DNA of 64,000 nt. It comes from a candidate division WOR-3 bacterium (lineage in GTDB: Bacteria; Hydrothermota; Tepidihabitantia; Tepidihabitantales; Tepidihabitantaceae). The notes under the pieces are model-generated. The model was not told the DNA's origin. It made no database searches and worked only from the letters and a program-made list of their open reading frames with translations. The first letter of the stretch is position 1. Each line of letters begins with the position of its first letter. The DNA lies in the NCBI GenBank assembly GCA_039801365.1, contig JBDRUN010000001.1, positions 37,711-101,710 on the forward strand, written 5' to 3'. Of this stretch, positions 19,572 to 32,806 are shown piece after piece. The translations under genes were made by a program, and so were the position numbers.

Positions 19572-20383
19572 CTAGTCCACGAGGAAACCGACCCGGCATT
19601 TGGCAAGAAGCTCAAGATTAGCCTTTGAGCCGTGAATTTTTGCCGCGTCATGGGCCGAAACTACAAAGTCGCAGGCATTTGTGCCGGTAACACCTATTGC
19701 CCTCACGGCCAGCGGATTCGCGCCGATACGTTCGCTGGCCAGTGCCTCGGTCCGGCTCTGGTAGTAGGCTACCATGCCGCTTACGGCAAGCTCTTTTTCC
19801 TCAACAAACCCCGGGCCATACACCTCCAAGTCCTTCTCATTCACGACGCGCGGGAATAGCGCCGGCTTGTAACCGAGCCCTCGGCCATCAATGAGAATAC
19901 CGGTGTACCCGGGATCTGTTCCAGTTTCATACGGGACCAGCTCGACGCCCTCAGGAACATCCACCCCCTCTGGCCACTCCTGACCGCAGCATGGACAGGC
20001 GACCCGGCCCAAGAGTCGGCCTCCGCCTGTCTTTGGCAAGATCTGGACCATGATGCTGCCAGTCAGCGGAACTCTGTAGTCGGTTGAGACCGAGCCATCT
20101 GAGCCAAATCTAGTTTCGCCCTGAATGACTGGAAGCGTCATGCGCTCAAGCCGCAATGCCTCACGGGGATGACTGGTCAGGAATTCTCTGACCGTGATGT
20201 CCCGGTCATAACTTGCCCGACCAAGCACCTCGAGCACTCGTGCGGTCAGATTTCCATGAGCAAACGACCCCAAGTTCTGCCGTTCGAGCATCGTCACGTA
20301 AACAGCCTGACGACTGAAGTCCAGCGTGTCGGCAGAAACAAGAGTGATCCCGACTACTAACATCAAAATCACAGTAGACTTCA
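19572..20383 (-). CDS. Hypothetical secreted protein
   Basis: Start reset to MKSTVILMLVVGITLVSA (signal peptide) with a GGAGG RBS 6 nt upstream. A CPCC motif is present. No family recognised. Confidence 0.5.
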
Positions 20384-20430
20384 TTCCAACCTCCGCTATG
20401 TCCTCAATGCTGAGGACTATACCCGACATA

Positions 20431-20501
20431 AGCGGCCAACGGGATTCGAACCCGTGTAGCTGGCTTGGGAAGCCAGAGCTCTACCCCTGAGCTATGGCCG
20501 C
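20431..20501 (-). tRNA. tRNA-Gly (anticodon CCC)
   Basis: The reverse complement folds as a cloverleaf: acceptor GCGGCCA/TGGCCGC, D-arm GCTC…GAGC, anticodon stem CTGGC/GCCAG with loop TTCCCAA, and T-arm ACGGG-TTCGAAT-CCCGT. No encoded CCA. Confidence 0.8.
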
Positions 20502-20567
20502 ACACCAATTGTAGTCCTCAACGACCTCAGCTTAGGAGTCTACGTGCTTTCCAAGTACCCGCATGGG

Positions 20568-20601
20568 CTTGGGAAGCCAGAGCTCTACCCCTGAGCTACT
20601 A
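20568..20601. repeat. 33-bp partial duplicate of the tRNA-Gly gene (D-arm to anticodon arm), about 60 bp from the intact tRNA
   Basis: GGCTTGGGAAGCCAGAGCTCTACCCCTGAGCTA is identical to 20462–20494. The flanks diverge and the segment does not fold as a tRNA. Confidence 0.6.
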
Positions 20602-20845
20602 CATGCTAAGACCCCGGCTCCAACTGTCAAGCAGTTCTCGACCATCGCTCCAGCGGCCAGAAAGCCTTTCCGCCTGCTCCAAGCCTGACCACTCCCTTTC
20701 CGACCAGCCTGCTCCGACAGGTTGCCACTCCGGCTTTCGAGCATGAGCAAGTTGTCCAGAAGCTCGAGTTTGCGACGGTTCCGGACAGGGAATCCGAAGT
20801 TCTAACCCCTGGAAGCTGCGCTGCTCCAGCCAACAGCTTACGACG

Positions 20846-22270
20846 CTATTCCAGTTTGACTACCCGGCAAGCCGGAGAAGTCGAATCCACAGGACAGACC
20901 AGATATACTCCGGCCCCAAGCCCCTTCCCAATCTGGTCTCCGCGCTGTACCGCCACCCTGTTGCCGGCCGGGTCGAAAACCGACACCAGTCCCTGCTCAC
21001 GGCCCGGCAAAACCCCGTGCGTACGGAATACGCTTGGCACCACCAGCGGCTTCGGGGTCGCTGGCGACAGGTGCGCAATGTCGAACATTCCGACGTTGCC
21101 GCTGGTATTGCGCCGATGATATATCTCCTGGTTATAGATATGGCCACCCAGTGGATAGCCGTCGTGAACCACGTGCACAGTATTGCGCGAAGTGATGACA
21201 TGATAGTGATGGGTATGGATGGCCGATTCGCAGGAAACGACGAAGTCCGGTTCCCAAGTCAGCCCCCGGTCAGTAGAACGGGTATAGTGGGTCACATACA
21301 TTATCATGTCCATTCTGACGGCATGCAGGTACTGACCCGAAGCCCACAGATTCACGCTCCACGTGTGCGCCTGGTCGTTTGATATCTGCCGCTCCGGGGC
21401 CCAAGTTGCGCCGTTGTTCGTCGAACGAAAGTAGTAGAACTGGGAGAAGTTATCCCGGCCATCAACGTAGGCCAGATGGACATTCTGTCCTTCGGCCGCA
21501 ATACAGGGTGAGTCAGCTTTGTCTGGTGTCGGAAACTCGTATTCCGGAAGCCAGTCCTTGCCGCCGTTGGTTGAACGCCGGTATGTCACCCGCTCTTGCC
21601 AATAGTTCTCCCAGGCAACGTGTACAAACCGGCCCGATACGGCAATCGTCGGACACCAGTCGCCTGTGTTGATACCGATGGCCAACTCCTGGCCCCAAGT
21701 CCGGCCACCGTCTAATGACCGCCGGTAGAACACGTTGTCATCCCCGGCTAGACCGGCTCGATCGTCGTGAAACACCAGATGCAACGTGCAGCCGCTCGCA
21801 ACCATAACAGGAAAGTAGGCGCCCAGCTCACCGGTAGTGGCAAAGGTAAGCCGTGTCTGCTCTCCCCAGGTTGTTCCCCCGTCGGTTGAGCGCATGTAGT
21901 AAATGTCCGACTCCCGCAGCCGACCCGACATGTTACGCTCGTCGGTCCAGACAAGATGCAGTGTGTCACCAATCGCCAGCAGCGAAGGATAGCCCTGCCA
22001 AAAAGGGTCGTTCACAATACACCGCTCCGGCTCCCAAGTCGTGCCGTTATCAAACGAACGGATGTAATACAAGTCGCCATTGCCGGTCTTGTAGTCCCAC
22101 CACACCAGATGCAGAGTATCTCCGACCGCGGCAATCGGGAACTGCGTGCTGTTCGAGAGATACCCGGTGCTGTCGTGAAATGTCAGCCTGCGGGCCGGTT
22201 CCCACTGACCGACGGCCGGCGTAGTCAAAAGAACAACGACGAACACGGGACACAAAGCAGTCAACTTCAT
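20846..22270 (-). CDS. Secreted BNR/Asp-box repeat propeller (sialidase-like fold) with T9SS C-terminal domain
   Basis: Start at MKLTALCPVFVVVLLTTPAVGQ with a GGAGG RBS. Repeated S/TxDxGxTW boxes (RSTDGGTTW, RSLDGGRTW, RSTNGGKDW, RSTNNGATW, RSTDRGLTW). Tail …GAGVYLVCPVDS…. Confidence 0.75.
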   Translation of the reverse strand: MKLTALCPVFVVVLLTTPAVGQWEPARRLTFHDSTGYLSNSTQFPIAAVGDTLHLVWWDYKTGNGDLYYIRSFDNGTTWEPERCIVNDPFWQGYPSLLAIGDTLHLVWTDERNMSGRLRESDIYYMRSTDGGTTWGEQTRLTFATTGELGAYFPVMVASGCTLHLVFHDDRAGLAGDDNVFYRRSLDGGRTWGQELAIGINTGDWCPTIAVSGRFVHVAWENYWQERVTYRRSTNGGKDWLPEYEFPTPDKADSPCIAAEGQNVHLAYVDGRDNFSQFYYFRSTNNGATWAPERQISNDQAHTWSVNLWASGQYLHAVRMDMIMYVTHYTRSTDRGLTWEPDFVVSCESAIHTHHYHVITSRNTVHVVHDGYPLGGHIYNQEIYHRRNTSGNVGMFDIAHLSPATPKPLVVPSVFRTHGVLPGREQGLVSVFDPAGNRVAVQRGDQIGKGLGAGVYLVCPVDSTSPACRVVKLE

Positions 22271-22435
22271 CTTACCTCCCGCGATTGCAGCGCGGCCGCC
22301 CCTGCACCATTGCCGAGACAACAGCCGTATAGACCTGAACATCTATCTGGCATCCAGGACTGTCTCAATGGTACGAACAGCCGCCAGCGCGTTGCCGTAT
22401 CTCTTACATCGCGTGCCACTGTACTCATGGCGTCG

Positions 22436-25400
22436 TTACTTCTCTACCACCAGCTTCTGCGTTTGGGGTAGTCCGGTTGCGTCCAACCTTACCAGGTAGA
22501 CGCCGGCCGCAAACTGCCTCAGGTCCAGCACGATTGGCAACCGAGTGTCGGTCACCCGTTGGCCGAGAACGCACCGGCCTGCCGCGTCAAACACGCGCAC
22601 CCAACCCCCTGGCCACCTGGGTTCCTGACCACTCAGCCTAAGTATCGCCCGGCCGTTCGCAATCGGATTAGGGCTCACTGTAAGCTGCGTCCCGCCCGCC
22701 ACCGCCTTGTCTGCCTGCACTCCGGCGTAGAGTGTATTGCGCCGGGTGTAGCGTGCCGGGGCTTCGACCCAGCGCCAGAACTCAAAGGTCTTGTTCCCCT
22801 TCAAGGCAAACAGGGCCAAGTCTCGATACCCTGCAATGTCCCCTCCGGCCTTCACATACTTCTTCTTGCCGGTCGAACCGTTGCCCGGCATCGTGTCCAG
22901 CTCCTGCCAACTGTCGCCATCCGGAAAGTAACGGAAAAACTGCTGTGTATTGCCACCCTTCAAGGCGTACAGATTGTCGCGAAACCAAGCGCCGCCTGCT
23001 CCGTCCTTTGACTTCTTCTTCTTGTCCGGCCTGCCGCTGTGCCAGCCTGATACCGGCATCCCCTTGAGCGTGTCAGTCCACCTCTGGGTCAGTACGTCAT
23101 AACGGAACATGCAATGGTGTGGGTTCTCCTGTGTCTTATCGTAATACTTTGCCTGGTGGCAATATATCTCGGACACGGCCTGGCCCCTCTTGTGGTAAAC
23201 AAGGAACGAGCCTTTGTCGTACTTCTGCTTGGCGACACCATAAGGTGCCTCATCCAACGTATCCCAGCGGCCGGCCAGCACATTGTAGCGGTAGAACTCG
23301 GTCTTGCCACCCTTCAACAGATACACATAGCCGGTATCGTGCTGCTTCTTGGCATACACCATGTCGGTTCCCCCCTTCACCTTCTTGCCGTACTTGCCGA
23401 GCGGCACGTTTGCAAGCGAGTCCCAAGTGTTGGTGGTAACGTTGTACCGCCAGAACCCGAGCGTATTATTGCCCTTGACCATATAGACATAGCCATCGCC
23501 AAACACTGCGGCGCAGCCCTTAGAGGGCGGTTTCCTGCGGCCGCCCTCGTAAGACGGAATCGTCTCCAAGACAAAGAACGTGTCGTCCTCTGGCTCGTAC
23601 CGGTAGAAGTCAACCATCTTGTTACCCTTGGCAACGTACAAGACCTTGCGTCCATCGGTTGCCGCCCCCCCCTCGATTACAAAGGCACCATCCTTCACAC
23701 CCTTTGCCCCTGTTTCGTGCGGCACCGACTTCACCTCCACCCAGCCCGGAGGCCAGGAGGGTCCCTCCTGCCTTGTCGAGAAAGTAAACGGCCCGTTCGA
23801 GCTCCATTTTTCACCGTCGGTTGCAGTAATTGCCTTCACGTCCCACTTGTAGGCCGTGCCGTACTTCAGGGCCGCAAGGTCGTAGGTCCAGGTGTTGTCT
23901 GTAAGCCCGGTCTTCACTGGAGAACCTTCCCGCGGATTTGCGGGCGACTCGGTAAGGTACACTTCATAGGTCAACGTGTAATCAGGACTTGCGTCTTCCC
24001 ACTCAAATTTGATTCCGGTCACTGGCTGGCGTAAGGCCAAGTCGGCTGGCTTGGTCAGATTGAAGTCCTTTGGCTCAGGTATCGGTGACCGGACCGTGAA
24101 CGTCGCGGGATTGGATTCGCCACCGCCTGGATTCGGATTGAACACGGTGATTGGGTACTCACCCGCAACAAGCAGGTCCCCGGCCGGTATTGCCGCTTCA
24201 AGTTCAGTCGCACTCTTCCAGGTCGTTCCCCTGTCCGAGCCGTTGAACCGCACGACCGAGCCTGGGCCGAACCCGGTTGTTGGAACGAAGTTCGTGCCGG
24301 TAACGGTCATTGTAAACCCTGGGTCGCCGACGTTCTTCTCATCCGGGTCAATGTCAGTAATCGTGGGCACCAGGTTCTTCACCGTGAACATCACCGGGTC
24401 TGACTCACCACCACCCGGACTCGGATTGAACACGGTGATTGGGTACTCACCCGCAACAAGCAGGTCCCCGGCCGGTATTACCGCCTCGAGTTCGGTCGCA
24501 CTTTTCCAGGTCGTTCCCCTGTCCGAACCGTTGAACCGCACAACCGAGCCTGGGCCGAAGGCAGTTGTTGGTACAAAGTTCGTGCCGGCAACGGCCAGTG
24601 TAAACCCTGGCTCACCAACATTCTTCTCATCCGGGTCAATGTCAGTAATCGTGGGCACCAGATTCTTCACCGTGAACATCTTCGGATCAGACTCCCCACC
24701 CCCAGGCGCCGCGTTGAACACAGTAATCGGGAACTCACCTGCGACTTCAAGGTCCGAGGCCAGTATCGTCGCCTCCAGCCTGGTATTGCTCTTGTACTCC
24801 GTAGCCCTGGGCGAGCCGTTGAACCGCACGACCGAGCCTGGGCCGAACCCGGTTGTTGGAACGAAGTTCGTGCCGGTAACAGTCAGCGTGAACCCAGGTT
24901 CGCCCGCATTCTTCTCAGACGGGTCTATGCTTGTGATACTGGGCCTCAGGTTCTTCACCGTGAAGCTGTGGGTACCGGTACTCGGGTACTTGTCGTTAGT
25001 CTTCACCTGGTCAGTACTGAGTTCGGTGCTGCACGTCACGGTGTAGGTGCCAGCGTAGAGTGTGACGTTCACCTGGCTGAAGTTCACCGCCTTGCCGGCT
25101 TGGAGCGGGTCAAGACTCGGCGTCTTCTGGTCGCTCCAGACCTGGGTGCCGCTGGAGTTGTAGATGCGGAGTGTCACCGGCACGGTCGGCTCGCTGGTCG
25201 AGGTGAAGTTGGAAATCGTCGCAACCGGCGTAATCGGGTCGCCGAAGTTGTACTCTGAACCATTGGCCGGAGTTGTTATCCCGACTGCACCCACGTCGTG
25301 CGGCTGCGTTGCCGTGTAGTTGATTACCAGATACGGAGCAGTTCTCTTCCAGCCATAGATGTACCGAGCCGCAGTACCGCCCGTACCCCTCTTTATGCCG

Positions 25401-26611
25401 AACGCCACCCAGTTCCGGCTGAGCGCGGCCTGAACTGCACCAACACCGGTCGAGTTCAAATCCCTCGCCGACCACGCGGGCGCAGGAGATTCGGTAGCCG
25501 AGGGCGACACCACGTCACCGTTGATGATGGCTTGTTGGAGGTCATATGCGGATGCAGAAACCGGGTCAAAGCTGGGCGAGATGGCAGTCCATATGCTGCT
25601 GGATGATGTCGTCCCGGAGAAAAGATAGTAGTTCAGGGATACCGAGTTTACGGTCGCGCCGTCTGGCACCGCGGAAAGGTCGAACTTTGCCCACCCGACC
25701 GAGTTAGTGCTGTAGTAGTAGATGATATCGTCGGTCTTGGTGGAAGCGGTCGTCCAGCCAGTCCAGTAAGCGCTGTTGAGCGACGCTTGCGGCGAAGCGG
25801 AGATATCGGAAACCCAGAACACTCGCAAGTAAGGTCTGTAAGAACCGCCGGTGTAACCATAGGCGGCCCGGTAGTTTGCCGAACTTGTGTAGTACCAGCC
25901 GAAGGCCACCCAATCGCTAGTGAGATTGCTTTCTATCGCCGCCACCCCTACCGAGTTCAGGGGTCTGGCTACCCAGTTCACATCGTCGCCACCGCTGGCG
26001 CGTGTAGGTTCCTCGCAGGCGGCAGTAATCGCCGGTCCCTCATCGATGGAGGACCATACGTCCTCGGCGCTAGCCGTGACCGGGTCCACGTCCATCAGGT
26101 GCCATTCTGATTCTTCCGCCGATGTTCCGGAGGATATGCAGTAGTACAGTATCGCCGAGGTGATGTCAACCCCTTCCGGCAGGTTACTCAGGTCGAACTT
26201 GGCCCAGCCGTAGTAGGAGTTGCTGCCGCCGCCGGAAATCTGCATCAGCGGGCCGTTTTTTACAGCACCCCAGTAGTCCACCCAGCCGGTTGCATACTGG
26301 ACGTTGTAAGGGTAGGCAATGCCACTACCGTCGGTCATCTGTTCCGCCGAACTGCCAACCTCGATCTCGTCAACTTCAACCCAGTTGCCGTGCTCATCTT
26401 GTCGGTGAATTGGATATGCGTATGTCTCGGTCGTTATTGTCCCGTCGCCATTCGAATAGTGACGGGAGCGCTCAGTCCGCAGCCCGACTATCTCGGTTCC
26501 TTTCGGAAGGAAACCCCAATTCTGGACCGTGGTGCCAGGTACAGCGGCCAGTGCCGCTGTCCAGCAGAGAACCAGTAGTTCTATTCCAATGACAGTCTTG
26601 TGTCGTGCCAT
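22436..26611 (-). CDS. Giant secreted protein (1391 aa): N-terminal domains, 3x tandem TIG/IPT-like Ig domains, Kelch-like repeats, T9SS C-terminal domain
   Basis: Signal peptide. Three approximately 96-aa repeats (…TITDIDPDEKNVGEPGFT…GSVVRFNGSDRGTTWKSATELEA…ITVFNP.PGGGES…). C-terminal tail …AGVYLVRLDATGLPQTQKLVVEK. Confidence 0.8.
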   Translation of the reverse strand: MARHKTVIGIELLVLCWTAALAAVPGTTVQNWGFLPKGTEIVGLRTERSRHYSNGDGTITTETYAYPIHRQDEHGNWVEVDEIEVGSSAEQMTDGSGIAYPYNVQYATGWVDYWGAVKNGPLMQISGGGSNSYYGWAKFDLSNLPEGVDITSAILYYCISSGTSAEESEWHLMDVDPVTASAEDVWSSIDEGPAITAACEEPTRASGGDDVNWVARPLNSVGVAAIESNLTSDWVAFGWYYTSSANYRAAYGYTGGSYRPYLRVFWVSDISASPQASLNSAYWTGWTTASTKTDDIIYYYSTNSVGWAKFDLSAVPDGATVNSVSLNYYLFSGTTSSSSIWTAISPSFDPVSASAYDLQQAIINGDVVSPSATESPAPAWSARDLNSTGVGAVQAALSRNWVAFGIKRGTGGTAARYIYGWKRTAPYLVINYTATQPHDVGAVGITTPANGSEYNFGDPITPVATISNFTSTSEPTVPVTLRIYNSSGTQVWSDQKTPSLDPLQAGKAVNFSQVNVTLYAGTYTVTCSTELSTDQVKTNDKYPSTGTHSFTVKNLRPSITSIDPSEKNAGEPGFTLTVTGTNFVPTTGFGPGSVVRFNGSPRATEYKSNTRLEATILASDLEVAGEFPITVFNAAPGGGESDPKMFTVKNLVPTITDIDPDEKNVGEPGFTLAVAGTNFVPTTAFGPGSVVRFNGSDRGTTWKSATELEAVIPAGDLLVAGEYPITVFNPSPGGGESDPVMFTVKNLVPTITDIDPDEKNVGDPGFTMTVTGTNFVPTTGFGPGSVVRFNGSDRGTTWKSATELEAAIPAGDLLVAGEYPITVFNPNPGGGESNPATFTVRSPIPEPKDFNLTKPADLALRQPVTGIKFEWEDASPDYTLTYEVYLTESPANPREGSPVKTGLTDNTWTYDLAALKYGTAYKWDVKAITATDGEKWSSNGPFTFSTRQEGPSWPPGWVEVKSVPHETGAKGVKDGAFVIEGGAATDGRKVLYVAKGNKMVDFYRYEPEDDTFFVLETIPSYEGGRRKPPSKGCAAVFGDGYVYMVKGNNTLGFWRYNVTTNTWDSLANVPLGKYGKKVKGGTDMVYAKKQHDTGYVYLLKGGKTEFYRYNVLAGRWDTLDEAPYGVAKQKYDKGSFLVYHKRGQAVSEIYCHQAKYYDKTQENPHHCMFRYDVLTQRWTDTLKGMPVSGWHSGRPDKKKKSKDGAGGAWFRDNLYALKGGNTQQFFRYFPDGDSWQELDTMPGNGSTGKKKYVKAGGDIAGYRDLALFALKGNKTFEFWRWVEAPARYTRRNTLYAGVQADKAVAGGTQLTVSPNPIANGRAILRLSGQEPRWPGGWVRVFDAAGRCVLGQRVTDTRLPIVLDLRQFAAGVYLVRLDATGLPQTQKLVVEK
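24070..24960. repeat. Three near-identical approximately 290-bp tandem repeats inside the giant-protein gene (encoding the TIG/IPT domains)
   Basis: Long nucleotide stretches recur, e.g. 24130–24400 versus 24420–24690, and the third copy is highly similar. Confidence 0.8.
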
Positions 26612-26627
26612 TGCTGCCTCCTTTGAT

Positions 26628-28286
26628 TCAGGGTTCTTTCAAACTTCTTACAACTGCCATTCGGCCGGTCGCAATCGCGTCTTTAGTTTCGAACCGAACC
26701 AGATACACGCCCGCGCTCAACCTCCGAAGGTCTAGCGTGACACCCAATGACCAGTCCTCACTCCTCCTGTTCCCTCCGCCTTCCAGAAGGGTGCGGGGAA
26801 TGTTGCGGACAAGAACGCACCTGCCCGCAGCGTCGAATACGCGTATAGTGCCGCCATTTCGTTCAACCCACTGTCCGGCAAGTCGAAGCATTGCCTGGTC
26901 GGACGTAACCGGGTTCGGCACAATGTGGATCCCCAACTCGGCAACAGGTATCAAGGCCGACTGGGAACGCATCGCAACCGGATTGCCACCGCGGTTGCGC
27001 CGGTAGTATATCTCGTAGAAGCCTGTGCTCTCCGGTATCATCCCATCAAAGAGTACGTGCACCGTGGTGTCGCTGACCGCGACCGCGTGGTCCATGCACT
27101 GCATCCGGAAATAGTCCGATACCTCGACTCCCGGTTCCCAAGTCACGCCGCCATCGGTCGAGCGGTGATACCATATGTGGTAGAGGTCCATTAGCAACCG
27201 CACGACATGCACATTTTTGCCCGACACAGCAACATCGGCTGACCAAGTGAAATCGCTATCCTGCGTCAGACAGGTCTCCGGCTCCCAGGTTACTCCGTTG
27301 TCAATCGAGCGGCGGTAGTACAACTGATCGAAGTTGGTCTGGCTGCCGTCAGAATAGACGACATGGACTGTGTCATGGGAAACGTCAACACACGGCGCAT
27401 AGGACACCGTCTCGGTCGGAAAACTGACTTGGGGCTGCCAGGTGTTTCCGCCATCGGTCGAACGCCGGTACCATACCCGCAGACTATTGAAGTTCTCCCA
27501 CACGACGTGCAGGTTCTTTCCCCACACGGCAATCGTCGAGAGCCAAGCTCCCATATCGCTCGCAATTGCCCGATCCTGGGTCCAAGTCTGACCTCGGTCG
27601 GTAGAACGCTTGTAATGAATCAGGTCGTCGCCGTTCCGGTCGTCTTCCCAGACCAGGTGCACGGTGTCGCCACGGCACGCCGCGCACGGGTGCCATCCTC
27701 CATATTCGCCGGCTGGGTTGGTGCAAAGCAGCGTTTCCGGCTGCCATGTCTCGCCTCCATCGGTTGAGCGCCGGTAATAGATGTCAGCCTCACGGATTCG
27801 GCCCGGCTTATTCCGTTCATCGGTCCAGAACACGTGTACCACCAAGCCAGAAACTGCCACCGTCGGCATCGCCTGATAGGCAGAGTCAAACGTGAGCTGT
27901 ACGTCTGGCCCCCAGGTTGTACCACCGTCAGTAGAACGCTTGTAGTACACTTCGTCGTTGCCGGTACGTTCATCGTACCAGACCGCGTGCAGTGTGTCGC
28001 CCGACACAGCCAGACAGCGCTCACCCCCGCTCGAAATCCAGGAATGGCCCGGCGCGCTGGTCAGCCTTTCGTAAGGCTCCCAGTCGACACCCGGCAAGAT
28101 AGCTGGCCGGACAACGATTCGATTGATAACTCTCCGCGCTCCGGCATGTTTGTTCGGTCGGATGCCCTGTTCGGCCCAAACCCACGTTGGTAGACCAAGG
28201 CCGAAAACCAGTAGGACAGCAGCCCACAAGACCGTCTTTCCTCTTGCTCTTGCTGCCATCTTCGCATCTCCTCTCATATCTCCCAC
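26628..28286 (-). CDS. Secreted BNR/Asp-box propeller protein with T9SS C-terminal domain
   Basis: Signal peptide. RSTDGGTTW, RSTDGGETW, RSTDRGQTW, RSTDGGNTW, RSIDNGVTW and RSTDGGVTW boxes. Tail …AGVYLVRFETKD…. Confidence 0.75.
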   Translation of the reverse strand: MGDMRGDAKMAARARGKTVLWAAVLLVFGLGLPTWVWAEQGIRPNKHAGARRVINRIVVRPAILPGVDWEPYERLTSAPGHSWISSGGERCLAVSGDTLHAVWYDERTGNDEVYYKRSTDGGTTWGPDVQLTFDSAYQAMPTVAVSGLVVHVFWTDERNKPGRIREADIYYRRSTDGGETWQPETLLCTNPAGEYGGWHPCAACRGDTVHLVWEDDRNGDDLIHYKRSTDRGQTWTQDRAIASDMGAWLSTIAVWGKNLHVVWENFNSLRVWYRRSTDGGNTWQPQVSFPTETVSYAPCVDVSHDTVHVVYSDGSQTNFDQLYYRRSIDNGVTWEPETCLTQDSDFTWSADVAVSGKNVHVVRLLMDLYHIWYHRSTDGGVTWEPGVEVSDYFRMQCMDHAVAVSDTTVHVLFDGMIPESTGFYEIYYRRNRGGNPVAMRSQSALIPVAELGIHIVPNPVTSDQAMLRLAGQWVERNGGTIRVFDAAGRCVLVRNIPRTLLEGGGNRRSEDWSLGVTLDLRRLSAGVYLVRFETKDAIATGRMAVVRSLKEP

Positions 28287-28290
28287 ATTC

Positions 28291-29049
28291 CTACCTGATC
28301 ACTATCACTTTCAGTATTCCGTCACCGCAATCCCTACTGGTTGGCGTTGCGTAGTACACACCCGACGACAGGTACCTCGTATCATTCTCACCTGGCGCGA
28401 GGTCCATCACTTTCCGGCCGTCTGAACCAAGCAGTGCGTATGAAGAGAACAATACCGATGGCAGCAGCAGGCTTCCGCGCACGACCGTCGGCCCCGGCTT
28501 ACTCCGTGGCGCTTGCGGTAGAAAGTGACCTTCTTTGACTCCGGTCCCGGTGTACTTCACCGAGACTTCGTCTATGTTCGTCGCATAAGGCTCGCCTGAG
28601 ATATTGGTGATGCGTATGCCGCAGAGCTTCTTGCCCAGAGACATCGTACTCTTCAGGTTCCCGGAGTATGTCCAGTCCTCATCGGCCACAAAGCTCGTCT
28701 GACTGGTACTGCTGTCCGAATAGTAGAACCGCACCTGCACTGGGCCTGACCCGCCGTTCTGATACCACATATAGGCCCACATCGAAGCCTCGATTATGTC
28801 GTCAACCGACGTAGCGGCAAACCGTTGTTCGATGTAGCCGTCGTCGGCCTCTGAACACGCGTAATACAGACCCCGCCGCGCGCCGCCGCCCCAGGTGGAA
28901 AAACCGAACCAGTCCCATTCACTCAGGTCCCCGGTCTCAAACCCGCCGTTCCTGATGAGTTCCTCTTGGGCAAATCCGATGGTGGTAATCAAGCAAGCCA
29001 GCAATACAATGACCACAAGTTTCCCCTCGCCAAGTACTAGCTTCATCAT
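28291..29049 (-). CDS. Secreted CBM-like (jelly-roll, NGGFE motif) protein with T9SS-like tail
   Basis: The signal peptide is followed by IRNGGFETGDLSEWDW, typical of CBM4/9/22-type modules. The start codon is ambiguous between the two adjacent Met. Confidence 0.6.
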   Translation of the reverse strand: MMKLVLGEGKLVVIVLLACLITTIGFAQEELIRNGGFETGDLSEWDWFGFSTWGGGARRGLYYACSEADDGYIEQRFAATSVDDIIEASMWAYMWYQNGGSGPVQVRFYYSDSSTSQTSFVADEDWTYSGNLKSTMSLGKKLCGIRITNISGEPYATNIDEVSVKYTGTGVKEGHFLPQAPRSKPGPTVVRGSLLLPSVLFSSYALLGSDGRKVMDLAPGENDTRYLSSGVYYATPTSRDCGDGILKVIVIR

Positions 29050-29072
29050 AAACGACCTTTCGTTACTCACCT

Positions 29073-30311
29073 CTAGCGCACCACCAGCTTCTGAGTCGCA
29101 CTCCGACTGTCAACATCCACTCTCGCCAGATACACGCCAGCTGGAACCTTCCGCAGGTCCAGCTTGGTACCCAGTTCCCAGTTAGCCGCTGCCGGCTGAT
29201 AGGAAATGATGCACCGACCCGATGCGTCGAACACTCGCACGTTCACCGCGCTGCTTCTCGATTCTTTGATTCCTTGAATCTTCAGCGTTACGGACCCGCT
29301 CGTTGCCGGATTGGGGCTCAGGACAAAAACACCACCCGGAGCAGCGCCAGACGACCCTGGCTCTTCCAGAGCCGTAAGTCCGGTGGAATACCAGACGTCA
29401 TTGAGGAAGTTATTGTGTCCGCGCTGGCCACCCATCACCCATATCTTGCCATCGTGCACAACCGAAACGTGGGCCTGACGAGCCTCCCACATCGGCACGC
29501 CGGTTGTTGCCTGGGTCCAGTTTTCACCGTCCGATGAGTACCAGACTTCGTTGTTGTGAGACGGATCGCGATACCCGCCCATTAGCCACAGCTTGTTGTC
29601 AAAGCTGACAAGCGTGGAGAGATGTCGCGGAGTCCAGTTAGCCGCGGCTGTAACCTGAGTCCAGTTCACGCCGTCCGAAGAGCACCACACGTCGTTACGG
29701 TCCGTTCCATCGTACCCGGCCATCACCCATATCTTGCCATTGTGAACGACCGCGGCGTGCCAGAACCGAGGAGACCAGCCCGCATTGCCAGCCAGAACCC
29801 AGTTGACGCCATCCGAAGAATACCAGACGTCGTTCGAACCGGTGTTACCAGGATAAACAAATCCACCCAGAACCCACATCTTGCCGTTGAAAACCACTGC
29901 TTCGTGCCCGATTCTCGGCGTCCACATTGGCGAGCCGGTAGTAAGCTTGACCCAGGTTACGCCGTCCGAGGAATACCAGACGTCGTTCTTGTAGTTACCG
30001 GTGTCATATCCGCCGAGTACCCACACTTTGTTGTCAAACACAACCGAGGCATGATCGTTCCGATACCCAGGGGCAGCACTGACCAACGTCCAGTCCGCGC
30101 CGTCAGCTGAGCGCCAGACGTCCTTGGTCGCGGTACCCTGTCGCCCGTAGATGACCCAGAGCGTATCCTGGAACACAACCGCAGTGTGCAGTTCACGCGC
30201 CGGCCACGCCGCTGCCGGCGTTGCCTGATGCCACACCATCTGGCCGAAGGTGGGCACAAGCCCGCCGATCAGTACCAGTGCGACCGCAAAACAAGTTCTG
30301 CTCATATCCAC
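29073..30311 (-). CDS. Secreted Kelch-repeat beta-propeller protein with T9SS C-terminal domain
   Basis: Six or more repeats of the …W..VLGGY…NDVWYSSDG.NW… motif. Tail …AGVYLARVDVDSRSATQKLVV. Confidence 0.75.
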   Translation of the reverse strand: MDMSRTCFAVALVLIGGLVPTFGQMVWHQATPAAAWPARELHTAVVFQDTLWVIYGRQGTATKDVWRSADGADWTLVSAAPGYRNDHASVVFDNKVWVLGGYDTGNYKNDVWYSSDGVTWVKLTTGSPMWTPRIGHEAVVFNGKMWVLGGFVYPGNTGSNDVWYSSDGVNWVLAGNAGWSPRFWHAAVVHNGKIWVMAGYDGTDRNDVWCSSDGVNWTQVTAAANWTPRHLSTLVSFDNKLWLMGGYRDPSHNNEVWYSSDGENWTQATTGVPMWEARQAHVSVVHDGKIWVMGGQRGHNNFLNDVWYSTGLTALEEPGSSGAAPGGVFVLSPNPATSGSVTLKIQGIKESRSSAVNVRVFDASGRCIISYQPAAANWELGTKLDLRKVPAGVYLARVDVDSRSATQKLVVR

Positions 30312-31538
30312 TCAGCGCAGCCGGCTGACCACTATTCTCTGCGCGACGCTGAACTCCGACGCTTCCAGTCGTGCAAGATAGATGCCGCTGGACAGTCGGC
30401 GGATGTCCAGCGGAATTCCTGATGACCACTCTCCAATGGCCAATAAATGGACAAGAACGCACCTGCCCGCAGCGTCAAATACACGTAGGTTCGCCCCCTG
30501 AACCCTTGATCCTTTGAACCCTTGAACCTTGACCGTAGTAACTTCGCCCGTCACCGGATTCGGGCTGACCTCCAACCATGGTAGCAGGAGGCTCTCTGCC
30601 TCTTCCTCGACCCCGCCCGAACCTGACGTCCACCAGACATCGTTCAGGAAGTTATTGTGTGCTATCTGTCCACCCATGACCCAAATCTTGCTATCGTAAA
30701 CGATTGTGGTATGGCTGCACCGTTGGCTCCACATTGGTGTTGAGCGGGGCATTTCAGTCCAGTACGCGCCGTCCGTGGAATACCATACGTCGTTTCGGTG
30801 CGAGCCGTCATAACCGCCTAATACCCAAAGCTTCCCATCAAAACCTACGCTTGTGTGCAAATGCCGCGCCGACCATCCAGCCGCTGACGTCGCCTGTGTC
30901 CAGTTCAGGCCGTTAGTCGAATACCACACATCATTCAGGTCATCCGGGTTACATCCGCCGAGCACCCACATCTTGCCATCGTGCACGGCTGCGGAGTGCC
31001 AGAACCTTGGCGGCCACTGGGCCGCAGGTGTGGCCAGCGTCCATGTTGCACCGTCGGTTGAATACCAGACGTCATTCAACGGGTCGTAACCAGGGTACTG
31101 GAACCCTCCCAAGACCCACATCTTGCCGTCATAGACAAGGGCCCGGTGCCCAATTCGGGATGTCCACATGGGCTGGTTTGTGTTCACCTTTATCCATGTT
31201 TCGCCGTCAGTAGAATAGAGCACGTCGCTGGTGTAGTTACCGTCCTTGTATCCGCCGAGAAGCCACATCTTGCCGTCATAGTCAAGCGCTACTTGGTCGT
31301 TGCCATACCCCGGTGTTGACGCCGCCTGGGTCCAATTTGTGCCGTCCTTCGAACTCCAAACGTCTTTCGCATCTGCGCCCCGGCCGTACAGAACCCACAT
31401 CGAGTTGTCAAAAGCAACGCTGGCGTGCAACTCCCGCGGCGCCCATGGCGCCGCCGGTGTTGCCAGATTCCACGTTATCTGGCCGACTACAGGCACAGTC
31501 AGAAAAAACAAGACGATTCCAACCGCCAACCTACGCAT
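30312..31538 (-). CDS. Secreted Kelch-repeat beta-propeller protein with T9SS C-terminal domain (paralog)
   Basis: Same repeat architecture. Start reset to MRRLAVGIVLFFLTVPVVGQ, preceded by AAGGAG. Its stop abuts the previous gene. Confidence 0.75.
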   Translation of the reverse strand: MRRLAVGIVLFFLTVPVVGQITWNLATPAAPWAPRELHASVAFDNSMWVLYGRGADAKDVWSSKDGTNWTQAASTPGYGNDQVALDYDGKMWLLGGYKDGNYTSDVLYSTDGETWIKVNTNQPMWTSRIGHRALVYDGKMWVLGGFQYPGYDPLNDVWYSTDGATWTLATPAAQWPPRFWHSAAVHDGKMWVLGGCNPDDLNDVWYSTNGLNWTQATSAAGWSARHLHTSVGFDGKLWVLGGYDGSHRNDVWYSTDGAYWTEMPRSTPMWSQRCSHTTIVYDSKIWVMGGQIAHNNFLNDVWWTSGSGGVEEEAESLLLPWLEVSPNPVTGEVTTVKVQGFKGSRVQGANLRVFDAAGRCVLVHLLAIGEWSSGIPLDIRRLSSGIYLARLEASEFSVAQRIVVSRLR

Positions 31539-32436
31539 TCCTTCTTCTCCTTTTCTTAGTTTCCCAGTCTTTGCTGTGCGGGTTTTCGAAGGAACGGTCC
31601 TTGCTCCCGCCATTTGGCTCTATTCGCTCAAGGTAGCGCGCCGCATCCTCACCTTCGGCCCACAGCGACTCGAACGCGCGGGCAAAAACCTCACCGACCG
31701 CTGCATCGTTTACTTTGAACAGAACCCCTTTTTCGTGGGAATTCTCCGGTCTCACCCAGGTCACCTGCCGATCAACCACGACGAATGTTGTCGGCAGCCG
31801 GTCAACCACCCGTGACTCCTCACCGGCCTTGATCAGCGCCAGTGCATACCGGCGTTCCTCCGGGTCGGCGACCGCTTCCGCCAGATACATGCTTCGGCAC
31901 CGTACCCTGCGCCGAATCGCCCCGATCTCGACCCGACACGCCCTGTTTCGGAAAAGTTTCAGTTTGTCCGCTGGAAGATATCTGGGATGCCGACCGCGCA
32001 CAAACAGCACTTCCCGCCGCGCCTGTTCAATATGCTTGAGCCGGTCCCAGTAGCCAGCCCCCGGTTCCTCGGCCGCGGCCCGGCGCACTTCGATAAACGG
32101 CAACGGACGGTTGTTATCAGCCCGGCGCCGGTACGCTTGCTGCAGCATCTTTACCGACTCCTGTTGTGTGTGAAGCAACCGGTGAGTCCGGCGTACGGTC
32201 GCATCAAAGACAACGTCCGGCGGTGCGGCCGCAAACATCCCGACCTGACCTTCAGCGTGCGTCACGAACCCACGCTCGGCAAGCCGCTTCAGCGCTGCGT
32301 ACACGTTGGGCCGGTGGATGTGGGCTGCTTTGACAAGGTCACTGACCGTCGCGTGTCTGATGCGTAGCAGCGCCGCATAGACCCGCGCTTCGTTCAAGCT
32401 CAGACCTAGCGTCTGGAGCCGTATTATTGCGTCCAT
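31531..32436 (-). CDS. TrmB-family transcriptional regulator
   Basis: N-terminal wHTH LGLSLNEARVYAALLRIRHATVSDLVKAAHIHRPNVYAALKRLAERGFV, typical of TrmB sugar-responsive regulators. It is the first gene of the minus-strand T9SS-cargo array. Confidence 0.7.
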   Translation of the reverse strand: MDAIIRLQTLGLSLNEARVYAALLRIRHATVSDLVKAAHIHRPNVYAALKRLAERGFVTHAEGQVGMFAAAPPDVVFDATVRRTHRLLHTQQESVKMLQQAYRRRADNNRPLPFIEVRRAAAEEPGAGYWDRLKHIEQARREVLFVRGRHPRYLPADKLKLFRNRACRVEIGAIRRRVRCRSMYLAEAVADPEERRYALALIKAGEESRVVDRLPTTFVVVDRQVTWVRPENSHEKGVLFKVNDAAVGEVFARAFESLWAEGEDAARYLERIEPNGGSKDRSFENPHSKDWETKKRRRRNA

Positions 32437-32601
32437 GGTCGGATTCTAGTCTACCCCTCGACCGTGTCAAGGGAAAAGGTATATATAGCTTATATAGACA
32501 ATAAACCGTGGCAAATCGCCGGTACGCGCCCGGTCACGAGGATACCCCCCCAACGCACGGCTGGTTGACAGGGGTGAACCGCCGGCTACAATGACCGTCC
32601 G

Positions 32602-32674
32602 GGCGGCGTAGCTCAATTGGTAGAGCAGCAGAATCATAATCTGCGTGTCAGGGGTTCGATTCCCTTCGCCGCCA
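32602..32674 (+). tRNA. tRNA-Met (anticodon CAT; elongator or tRNA-Ile2-type)
   Basis: Acceptor GGCGGCG/CGCCGCC, D-arm GCTC-AATTGGTA-GAGC, anticodon stem GCAGA/TCTGC with loop ATCATAA, T-arm AGGGG-TTCGATT-CCCTT, discriminator A. There are no three consecutive G-C pairs in the anticodon stem, so it is not an initiator. Confidence 0.85.
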
Positions 32675-32806
32675 CTCAACGGCGCTTGATGCAACACGCG
32701 TTACGTTCCACGCCCTTGTCGGATTGTGGCAGCGATTCCGTCCAGGGCTCGGCATACTACGGACCTGTACAACACAGTGCCGTGATACACAGCAACAGGA
32801 GGTAAA

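Follow-up and report, generated by a model that had tools for sequence, protein, structure and literature searches.

A predicted WOR-3 operon for exported beta-propeller and adhesin-like surface proteins, probably controlled by the TrmBL2-like protein of its first gene

The locus described here raises the question of whether a regulator gene and the six genes which follow it in a candidate division WOR-3 bacterium form a single operon, and what such an operon might be for. The row lies in a 64,000-nucleotide stretch of a WOR-3 (Caldifarciminota) MAG (the window), and a sequence-only reading had interpreted it as one long operon of secreted proteins headed by a sugar-responsive, TrmB-type regulator, perhaps for glycan foraging or surface adhesion. 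All seven ORFs were recovered on the minus strand at the positions given there, with the regulator first and six cargo genes after it (Table 1). On balance we think it probable that this is an operon for exported surface beta-propeller and adhesin-like proteins, controlled by its own first gene which encodes a bacterial TrmBL2-like DNA-binding protein.

Table 1. Features of the WOR-3 locus, with positions numbered from the first nucleotide of the window.
Feature	Position	Strand	Characteristics
tRNA-Gly(CCC)	20431..20501	-	ARAGORN and Rfam; downstream operon boundary
BNR-A, 474 aa	20846..22270	-	Signal peptide, Asp-box propeller, short divergent probable CTD
Giant/BNR-A spacer	22271..22435	-	165 nt; sole loose junction; likely BNR-A ATG 22270 after GGGAGG
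Giant, 1391 aa	22436..26611	-	Signal peptide, several domains (see text), T9SS CTD
Three 96-aa PGGG (choice-of-anchor Z) repeats	24092..24955	-	Copy number differs between strains
BNR-B, 543 aa	26628..28259	-	Signal peptide, seven-bladed Asp-box propeller, C-terminal beta-sandwich CTD
p259 (259-aa ORF), 252 aa from ATG 29049	28291..29049	-	Orphan secreted protein
Strain-divergence hotspot	28993..29564	-	Kelch-B linker and CTD, start of p259 gene
Kelch-B, 410 aa	29073..30305	-	Signal peptide, Kelch propeller, T9SS type-A CTD
Kelch-A, 408 aa	30312..31538	-	Signal peptide, six-bladed Kelch propeller, T9SS type-A CTD
TrmBL2-like regulator, 301 aa	31531..32436	-	wHTH, coiled coil, PLD-like domain, ~35-aa basic tail
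Sigma-70-type promoter TTGACA-N16-TAGAAT	32443..32470	-	Ends 6 nt before regulator ATG
Operator-like inverted repeat TGTCTATATAAGCTATATATACC	32478..32500	-	7 nt upstream of regulator -35 box
tRNA-Met	32602..32675	+	ARAGORN and Rfam; divergent; upstream operon boundary

The tight packing claimed for the row holds for the five junctions which had been quoted, all of which overlap or are separated by 0–31 nt, but not for the sixth, between the giant and BNR-A. The regulator stop codon and the Kelch-A start codon, which is preceded by AAGGAGAAGAAGGA, overlap by 8 nt (ATGCGTAG); at the remaining four of the quoted junctions the gap is 0–31 nt, depending on the start codon chosen. The cargo genes after Kelch-A have their own Shine-Dalgarno sites and gaps of 6–31 nt, with the exception of BNR-A, which is separated from the giant by 93 nt if the longest ORF is taken and by 165 nt if its likely start is used. 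This spacer has the same length in the related locus L001, a consensus scan found no promoter-like or terminator-like site within it, and its RNA fold is not significant (z -1.3). Within the whole row there are five promoter-like and ten terminator-like sites compared to 4.4 and 9.4 in shuffled sequence, and the promoter-like sites are weak (no more than 9 of 12 positions matched). The tRNA-Met gene has its own promoter (TTGACA-N16-TACAAT at 32565–32592), and a promoter-like TTGACA-N16-TAGCAT is found near tRNA-Gly(CCC) at 20603–20630. We also note that the 5' half of tRNA-Gly is duplicated exactly over 33 nt, 104 nt upstream of that gene.

The operon is also present in a sister strain, syntenic, between the same flanks and with 89–99% amino acid identity, and in this comparison the dN/dS of the cargo genes ranges from 0.04 to 0.40, each below 0.5, from which we conclude that the cargo genes are real and conserved. 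Synonymous divergence forms a mosaic along the row (for Kelch-B and p259 dS is 0.20 and 0.13, respectively, compared to 0.01 for the regulator and Kelch-A), and the row segments therefore appear to have had separate recombination histories. Identity to the sister strain is 65–85% in the hotspot listed in Table 1 compared to about 99% in most other stretches.

Pfam and NCBIfam models bore out most of the domain mix proposed earlier, identifying two Kelch proteins, two BNR/Asp-box proteins and the giant. Kelch-A and Kelch-B are paralogues (54% identity) with strong matches to Kelch models (E 4e-30 and 1e-40, respectively) and to the CTD model TIGR04183 (31.6 and 38.7 bits; cut-off 23). A Kelch–BNR pair with a 4-nt overlap is repeated in a more distant genome, and we regard Kelch–BNR as a conserved core pair. 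BNR-A (BNR_2 E 1.9e-17, six Asp-boxes) and BNR-B share 45% identity, and had been described as sialidase-like; the Asp-boxes are indeed present, but the propellers are seven-bladed and highly symmetric, lack the FRIP motif in both proteins, and in structure resemble lectins and PL42/GH145 propellers more than they do six-bladed sialidases. Enzymes (PL42, GH145 and PL25) are among the closest structural matches to the BNR propeller, so that a catalytic role is possible. The absence of a catalytic glycoside-hydrolase signature was nevertheless correctly noted, with no GH model significant for any protein.

The giant consists of a signal peptide, two tandem DNRLRE-like domains, an Ig-like domain, three 96-aa PGGG repeats (CoaZ_rpt_PGGG, NF058597, E 5.5e-81 in three stretches), a weak fn3-like segment (19.3 bits, below the cut-off of 25), a six-bladed Kelch-like propeller with a Kelch_6 match, and a Por tail (TIGR04183, 41.2 bits). 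PGGG repeats 2 and 3 share 89% DNA identity, and the sister-strain giant has exactly one 96-aa unit fewer (residues 589–684). We count this copy-number variation, together with the divergence hotspot in the CTD region, in favour of the surface-protein explanation, as both would be in keeping with surface-protein behaviour. The remaining cargo protein, p259, had been called a CBM jelly-roll, and this could not be upheld: Pfam, NCBIfam and further profile searches gave no significant family match, and the AF2 structure model failed (pLDDT 35). Among 5.8 billion proteins it has no homologues beyond its sister-strain orthologue (94%) and a single weak, partial match, while a dN/dS of 0.24 argues that it is a real gene. 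It starts with an NGGFETG motif, which is typical of CBM4/9-type jelly rolls.

Signal peptides had been proposed for every cargo product, and an N-terminal hydrophobic signal-like segment was found in all six, with most of the predicted cleavage sites before Gln. The six T9SS tails claimed at the same time fared less evenly: four are clear (giant, Kelch-A, Kelch-B and BNR-B) and the BNR-A tail is probable, but the p259 tail is unproven. Curated CTD models exceed their cut-offs only for the giant and the two Kelch proteins, and BNR-B falls just short (22.2 bits against 23); a local CTD profile is clear for four cargo proteins including BNR-B, which ends in a predicted beta-sandwich. The BNR-A tail is probably a divergent T9SS CTD, judging by the local WOR-3 CTD HMM (E 0.023) and hhalign (72%, P 3.3e-5), and has no match to curated CTD models; for p259 the same comparisons gave E 2.6 and 5%, with no CTD support. 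There is no T9SS machinery gene in the window, and a limited search of the WOR-3 genomics literature found no mention of T9SS.

Assignment of the regulator to the TrmB family was confirmed by PF01978 (E 7.3e-16; 58.2 bits, cut-off 25.6), and the wHTH keeps the conserved recognition Tyr as Y46. Positions 10–264 of its family profile align with residues 14–263/264 of TrmBL2 (PDB 5bpd; E 1.7e-11), and the sugar-binding TrmB (PDB 3qph) is matched over the N-terminal 6–125 only. The C-terminal half has weak matches to DUF7436 and a PLD-family hydrolase, and ends in a strongly basic tail (KKRRRRNA). From these alignments we place the regulator in the TrmB family, nearest in layout to TrmBL2, a short paralogue without the sugar-binding subdomain; the part of TrmB which is absent from TrmBL2 is about 70 residues long (TrmB review, PMC4158304). 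The term sugar-responsive is therefore unsupported, since the regulator aligns end-to-end with TrmBL2 and has no counterpart of this subdomain.

The regulator ATG is not preceded by a Shine-Dalgarno sequence. A promoter close to consensus (11 of 12 positions, and among the two best promoter-like matches in 20300–32800) is separated from it by 6 nt, and because of this the transcript is predicted to be leaderless. The same layout of a perfect TTGACA, N16–18, a -10 box and an ATG 6–11 nt further on is repeated in loci L001–L004 and L021. A search for operator motifs upstream of 32436, proposed in the sequence-only reading, located an inverted repeat which is conserved in relatives; in the window this reads TGTCTA-N11-TATACC, with an imperfect right arm, where the family form is TGTcTA-N10-11-TAgACA. 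The pattern TGT[CA]TA-N10-11-TA[GT]AC[AC] occurs exactly once in each WOR-3 locus (the window, L001, L002/L005, L003 and L004), always just upstream of the regulator -35 box, and has no further copies in 306 kb (0.045 expected per 64 kb shuffle), though as it was derived from the very sites on which it is counted and its spacing varies (N10–11), the only evidence it provides is that it is unique and keeps its place. Relatives at 41–52% identity, whose flanks otherwise cannot be aligned, retain the promoter, the inverted repeat and the leaderless arrangement. The repeat is centred near -53, a position compatible with repression or activation.

Relatives of the regulator on other WOR-3 contigs are also found beside exported proteins. 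In L004 the relative is upstream of a Kelch gene whose product ends in a Por tail, and stop and start overlap; in L002 and L003 it is followed by S8 subtilases (whose Por-tail matches are weak and sub-threshold) and then giants of more than 1559 aa; in L020 it is flanked by a gene with a tail judged CTD-like by eye and a secreted subtilase-like gene; and in L021 and L022 it is beside signal-peptide beta-helix proteins. With this gene order and the shared layout of promoter and inverted repeat, the link between regulator and secreted or T9SS cargo is stronger than the window alone reveals.

We propose that the sigma-70 promoter would produce a leaderless polycistronic mRNA, with leaderless initiation at the regulator, coupling of Kelch-A to it through the stop/start overlap, translation of the later genes from their own Shine-Dalgarno sites and probable co-transcription of BNR-A across its spacer. 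Regulator dimers bound to the inverted repeat abutting the -35 box would exert feedback of either sign on the whole operon; specific operator binding is an assumption here, because archaeal TrmBL2 is a largely non-specific chromatin protein. The cargo would cross the inner membrane via Sec, and at least four of the proteins would cross the outer membrane through a T9SS by means of their type-A CTDs and be kept on the cell surface, where the Asp-box propellers, six-bladed Kelch propellers and giant may act as binding (lectin- or adhesin-type) modules rather than hydrolases. This would be a fairly ordinary secreted-protein operon in which the type of regulator and the conserved control site are new.

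Other explanations need to be weighed against this. That the row is not one operon, with BNR-A and possibly others having their own promoters and the regulator controlling only itself and Kelch-A, we consider somewhat unlikely: the consensus scan may have missed a promoter in the spacer before BNR-A, synonymous divergence is a mosaic, and a Kelch–BNR pair elsewhere has no regulator in the 214 nt of available upstream sequence, but internal promoter- and terminator-like sites are weak and no commoner than in shuffled sequence, the spacer has no significant fold, the other junctions are tight, and the operator motif is present only once. It is unlikely that a sugar-responsive TrmB switches on a glycan-foraging secretome of sialidase-like BNR proteins, NanM-like Kelch mutarotases and a CBM protein. 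Such a view could draw on the family of the regulator, BNR_2 being the sialidase-type Pfam family with homologues named 'exo-alpha-sialidase' by NCBI, weak sub-threshold Kelch matches to a 'cyclically-permuted mutarotase' model, and the p259 motif; against this, the regulator ends where TrmBL2 ends and lacks the subdomain bearing the six sugar-contacting residues of TrmB, GH, PL and CBM models are all non-significant for every protein, and there is no sugar transporter or catabolic gene within or beside the row.

The regulator might instead be a general nucleoid-associated protein whose place before the cargo has no regulatory meaning. Its full-length similarity to TrmBL2, described in PMC3031468 as a non-specific DNA coater and global repressor in Thermococcales, its basic tail, and a two-domain architecture widespread enough to be found in 847 representative clusters (E<=1e-10) would all fit, yet secreted or T9SS cargo adjoins every examined close-subfamily member (though the cargo differs), translational coupling to a Kelch gene is seen in both the window and L004, and the inverted repeat at the regulator's own promoter is unique and conserved in position, making this decidedly improbable. 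Hardly to be expected is a horizontally acquired genomic island, as which the block between the two tRNA genes might be read given the tRNA-Gly duplicate and a slightly low GC (0.57–0.585 compared to about 0.59–0.61 in some flanks). No integrase, transposase or other mobility gene was found in the block with Pfam and NCBIfam, the difference in composition is inside the range across the window, the sister strain has the same flanks, the duplicate is of the 5' half and not the 3' end usual in integration, and the two tRNAs are on opposite strands.

The surface-protein operon we favour can be compared with several known systems. Thermococcales TrmBL2 (PF0496 / TK0471; PDB 5bpd/5box) is of the same length class and has the same two-part layout (wHTH with recognition Tyr, coiled coil, PLD-like), aligning end-to-end with our regulator, and neither has the sugar-binding subdomain. 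In contrast, the regulator is bacterial, only distantly related and has an extra basic tail; its gene, predicted to be leaderless, comes first in an operon of secreted proteins and has a palindrome at the promoter. TrmBL2 is an abundant chromatin protein and global repressor. TrmB and TrmBL1 (Pyrococcus furiosus, T. litoralis and Halobacterium) resemble it in their PF01978 DNA-binding domain and in having palindromic operators of the dimer type, but the regulator lacks the C-terminal subdomain bearing Asn305, Gly320, Met321, Val324, Ile325 and Glu326, and the TGM operator (TATCAC-N5-GTGATA) differs in sequence from the putative operator.

Among the cargo, BNR-A and BNR-B are ordinary members of the large, uncharacterised 'BNR_2 + Por_Secre_tail' family of Bacteroidota, Ignavibacteria and WOR-3 (~480 aa; the 'exo-alpha-sialidase' of NCBI), with 33–40% identity, the same architecture and the same per-blade consensus (VHVVWxDxRDGNxEIYYKRSTDGGxxW), though here two paralogues share one operon with Kelch propellers and a TrmBL2-like regulator. 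Seven-bladed lectins (PLL, BP39L and CV39L) and PL42/GH145/PL25 propellers have 9–14% sequence identity to BNR and are compared by fold; one difference lies in the Asp-boxes, which are a feature of the BNR proteins. As in Bacteroidota type-A cargo such as P. gingivalis RgpB and HBP35, a Sec signal is combined with a C-terminal domain of about 80 aa (TIGR04183/PF18962) with the shared motifs PNP, vFDaaGR and GVYLvR-KlVv; the host phylum differs, being WOR-3, and among the six tails here two are short or degenerate. The giant is unrelated to SprB in sequence, and motility genes are absent from its neighbourhood, but like SprB-type T9SS adhesins and 'choice-of-anchor' proteins it joins repeats in tandem (Ig-like or PGGG) to a propeller and a T9SS CTD, and as in large repeat-bearing adhesins its repeat copy number varies between strains.

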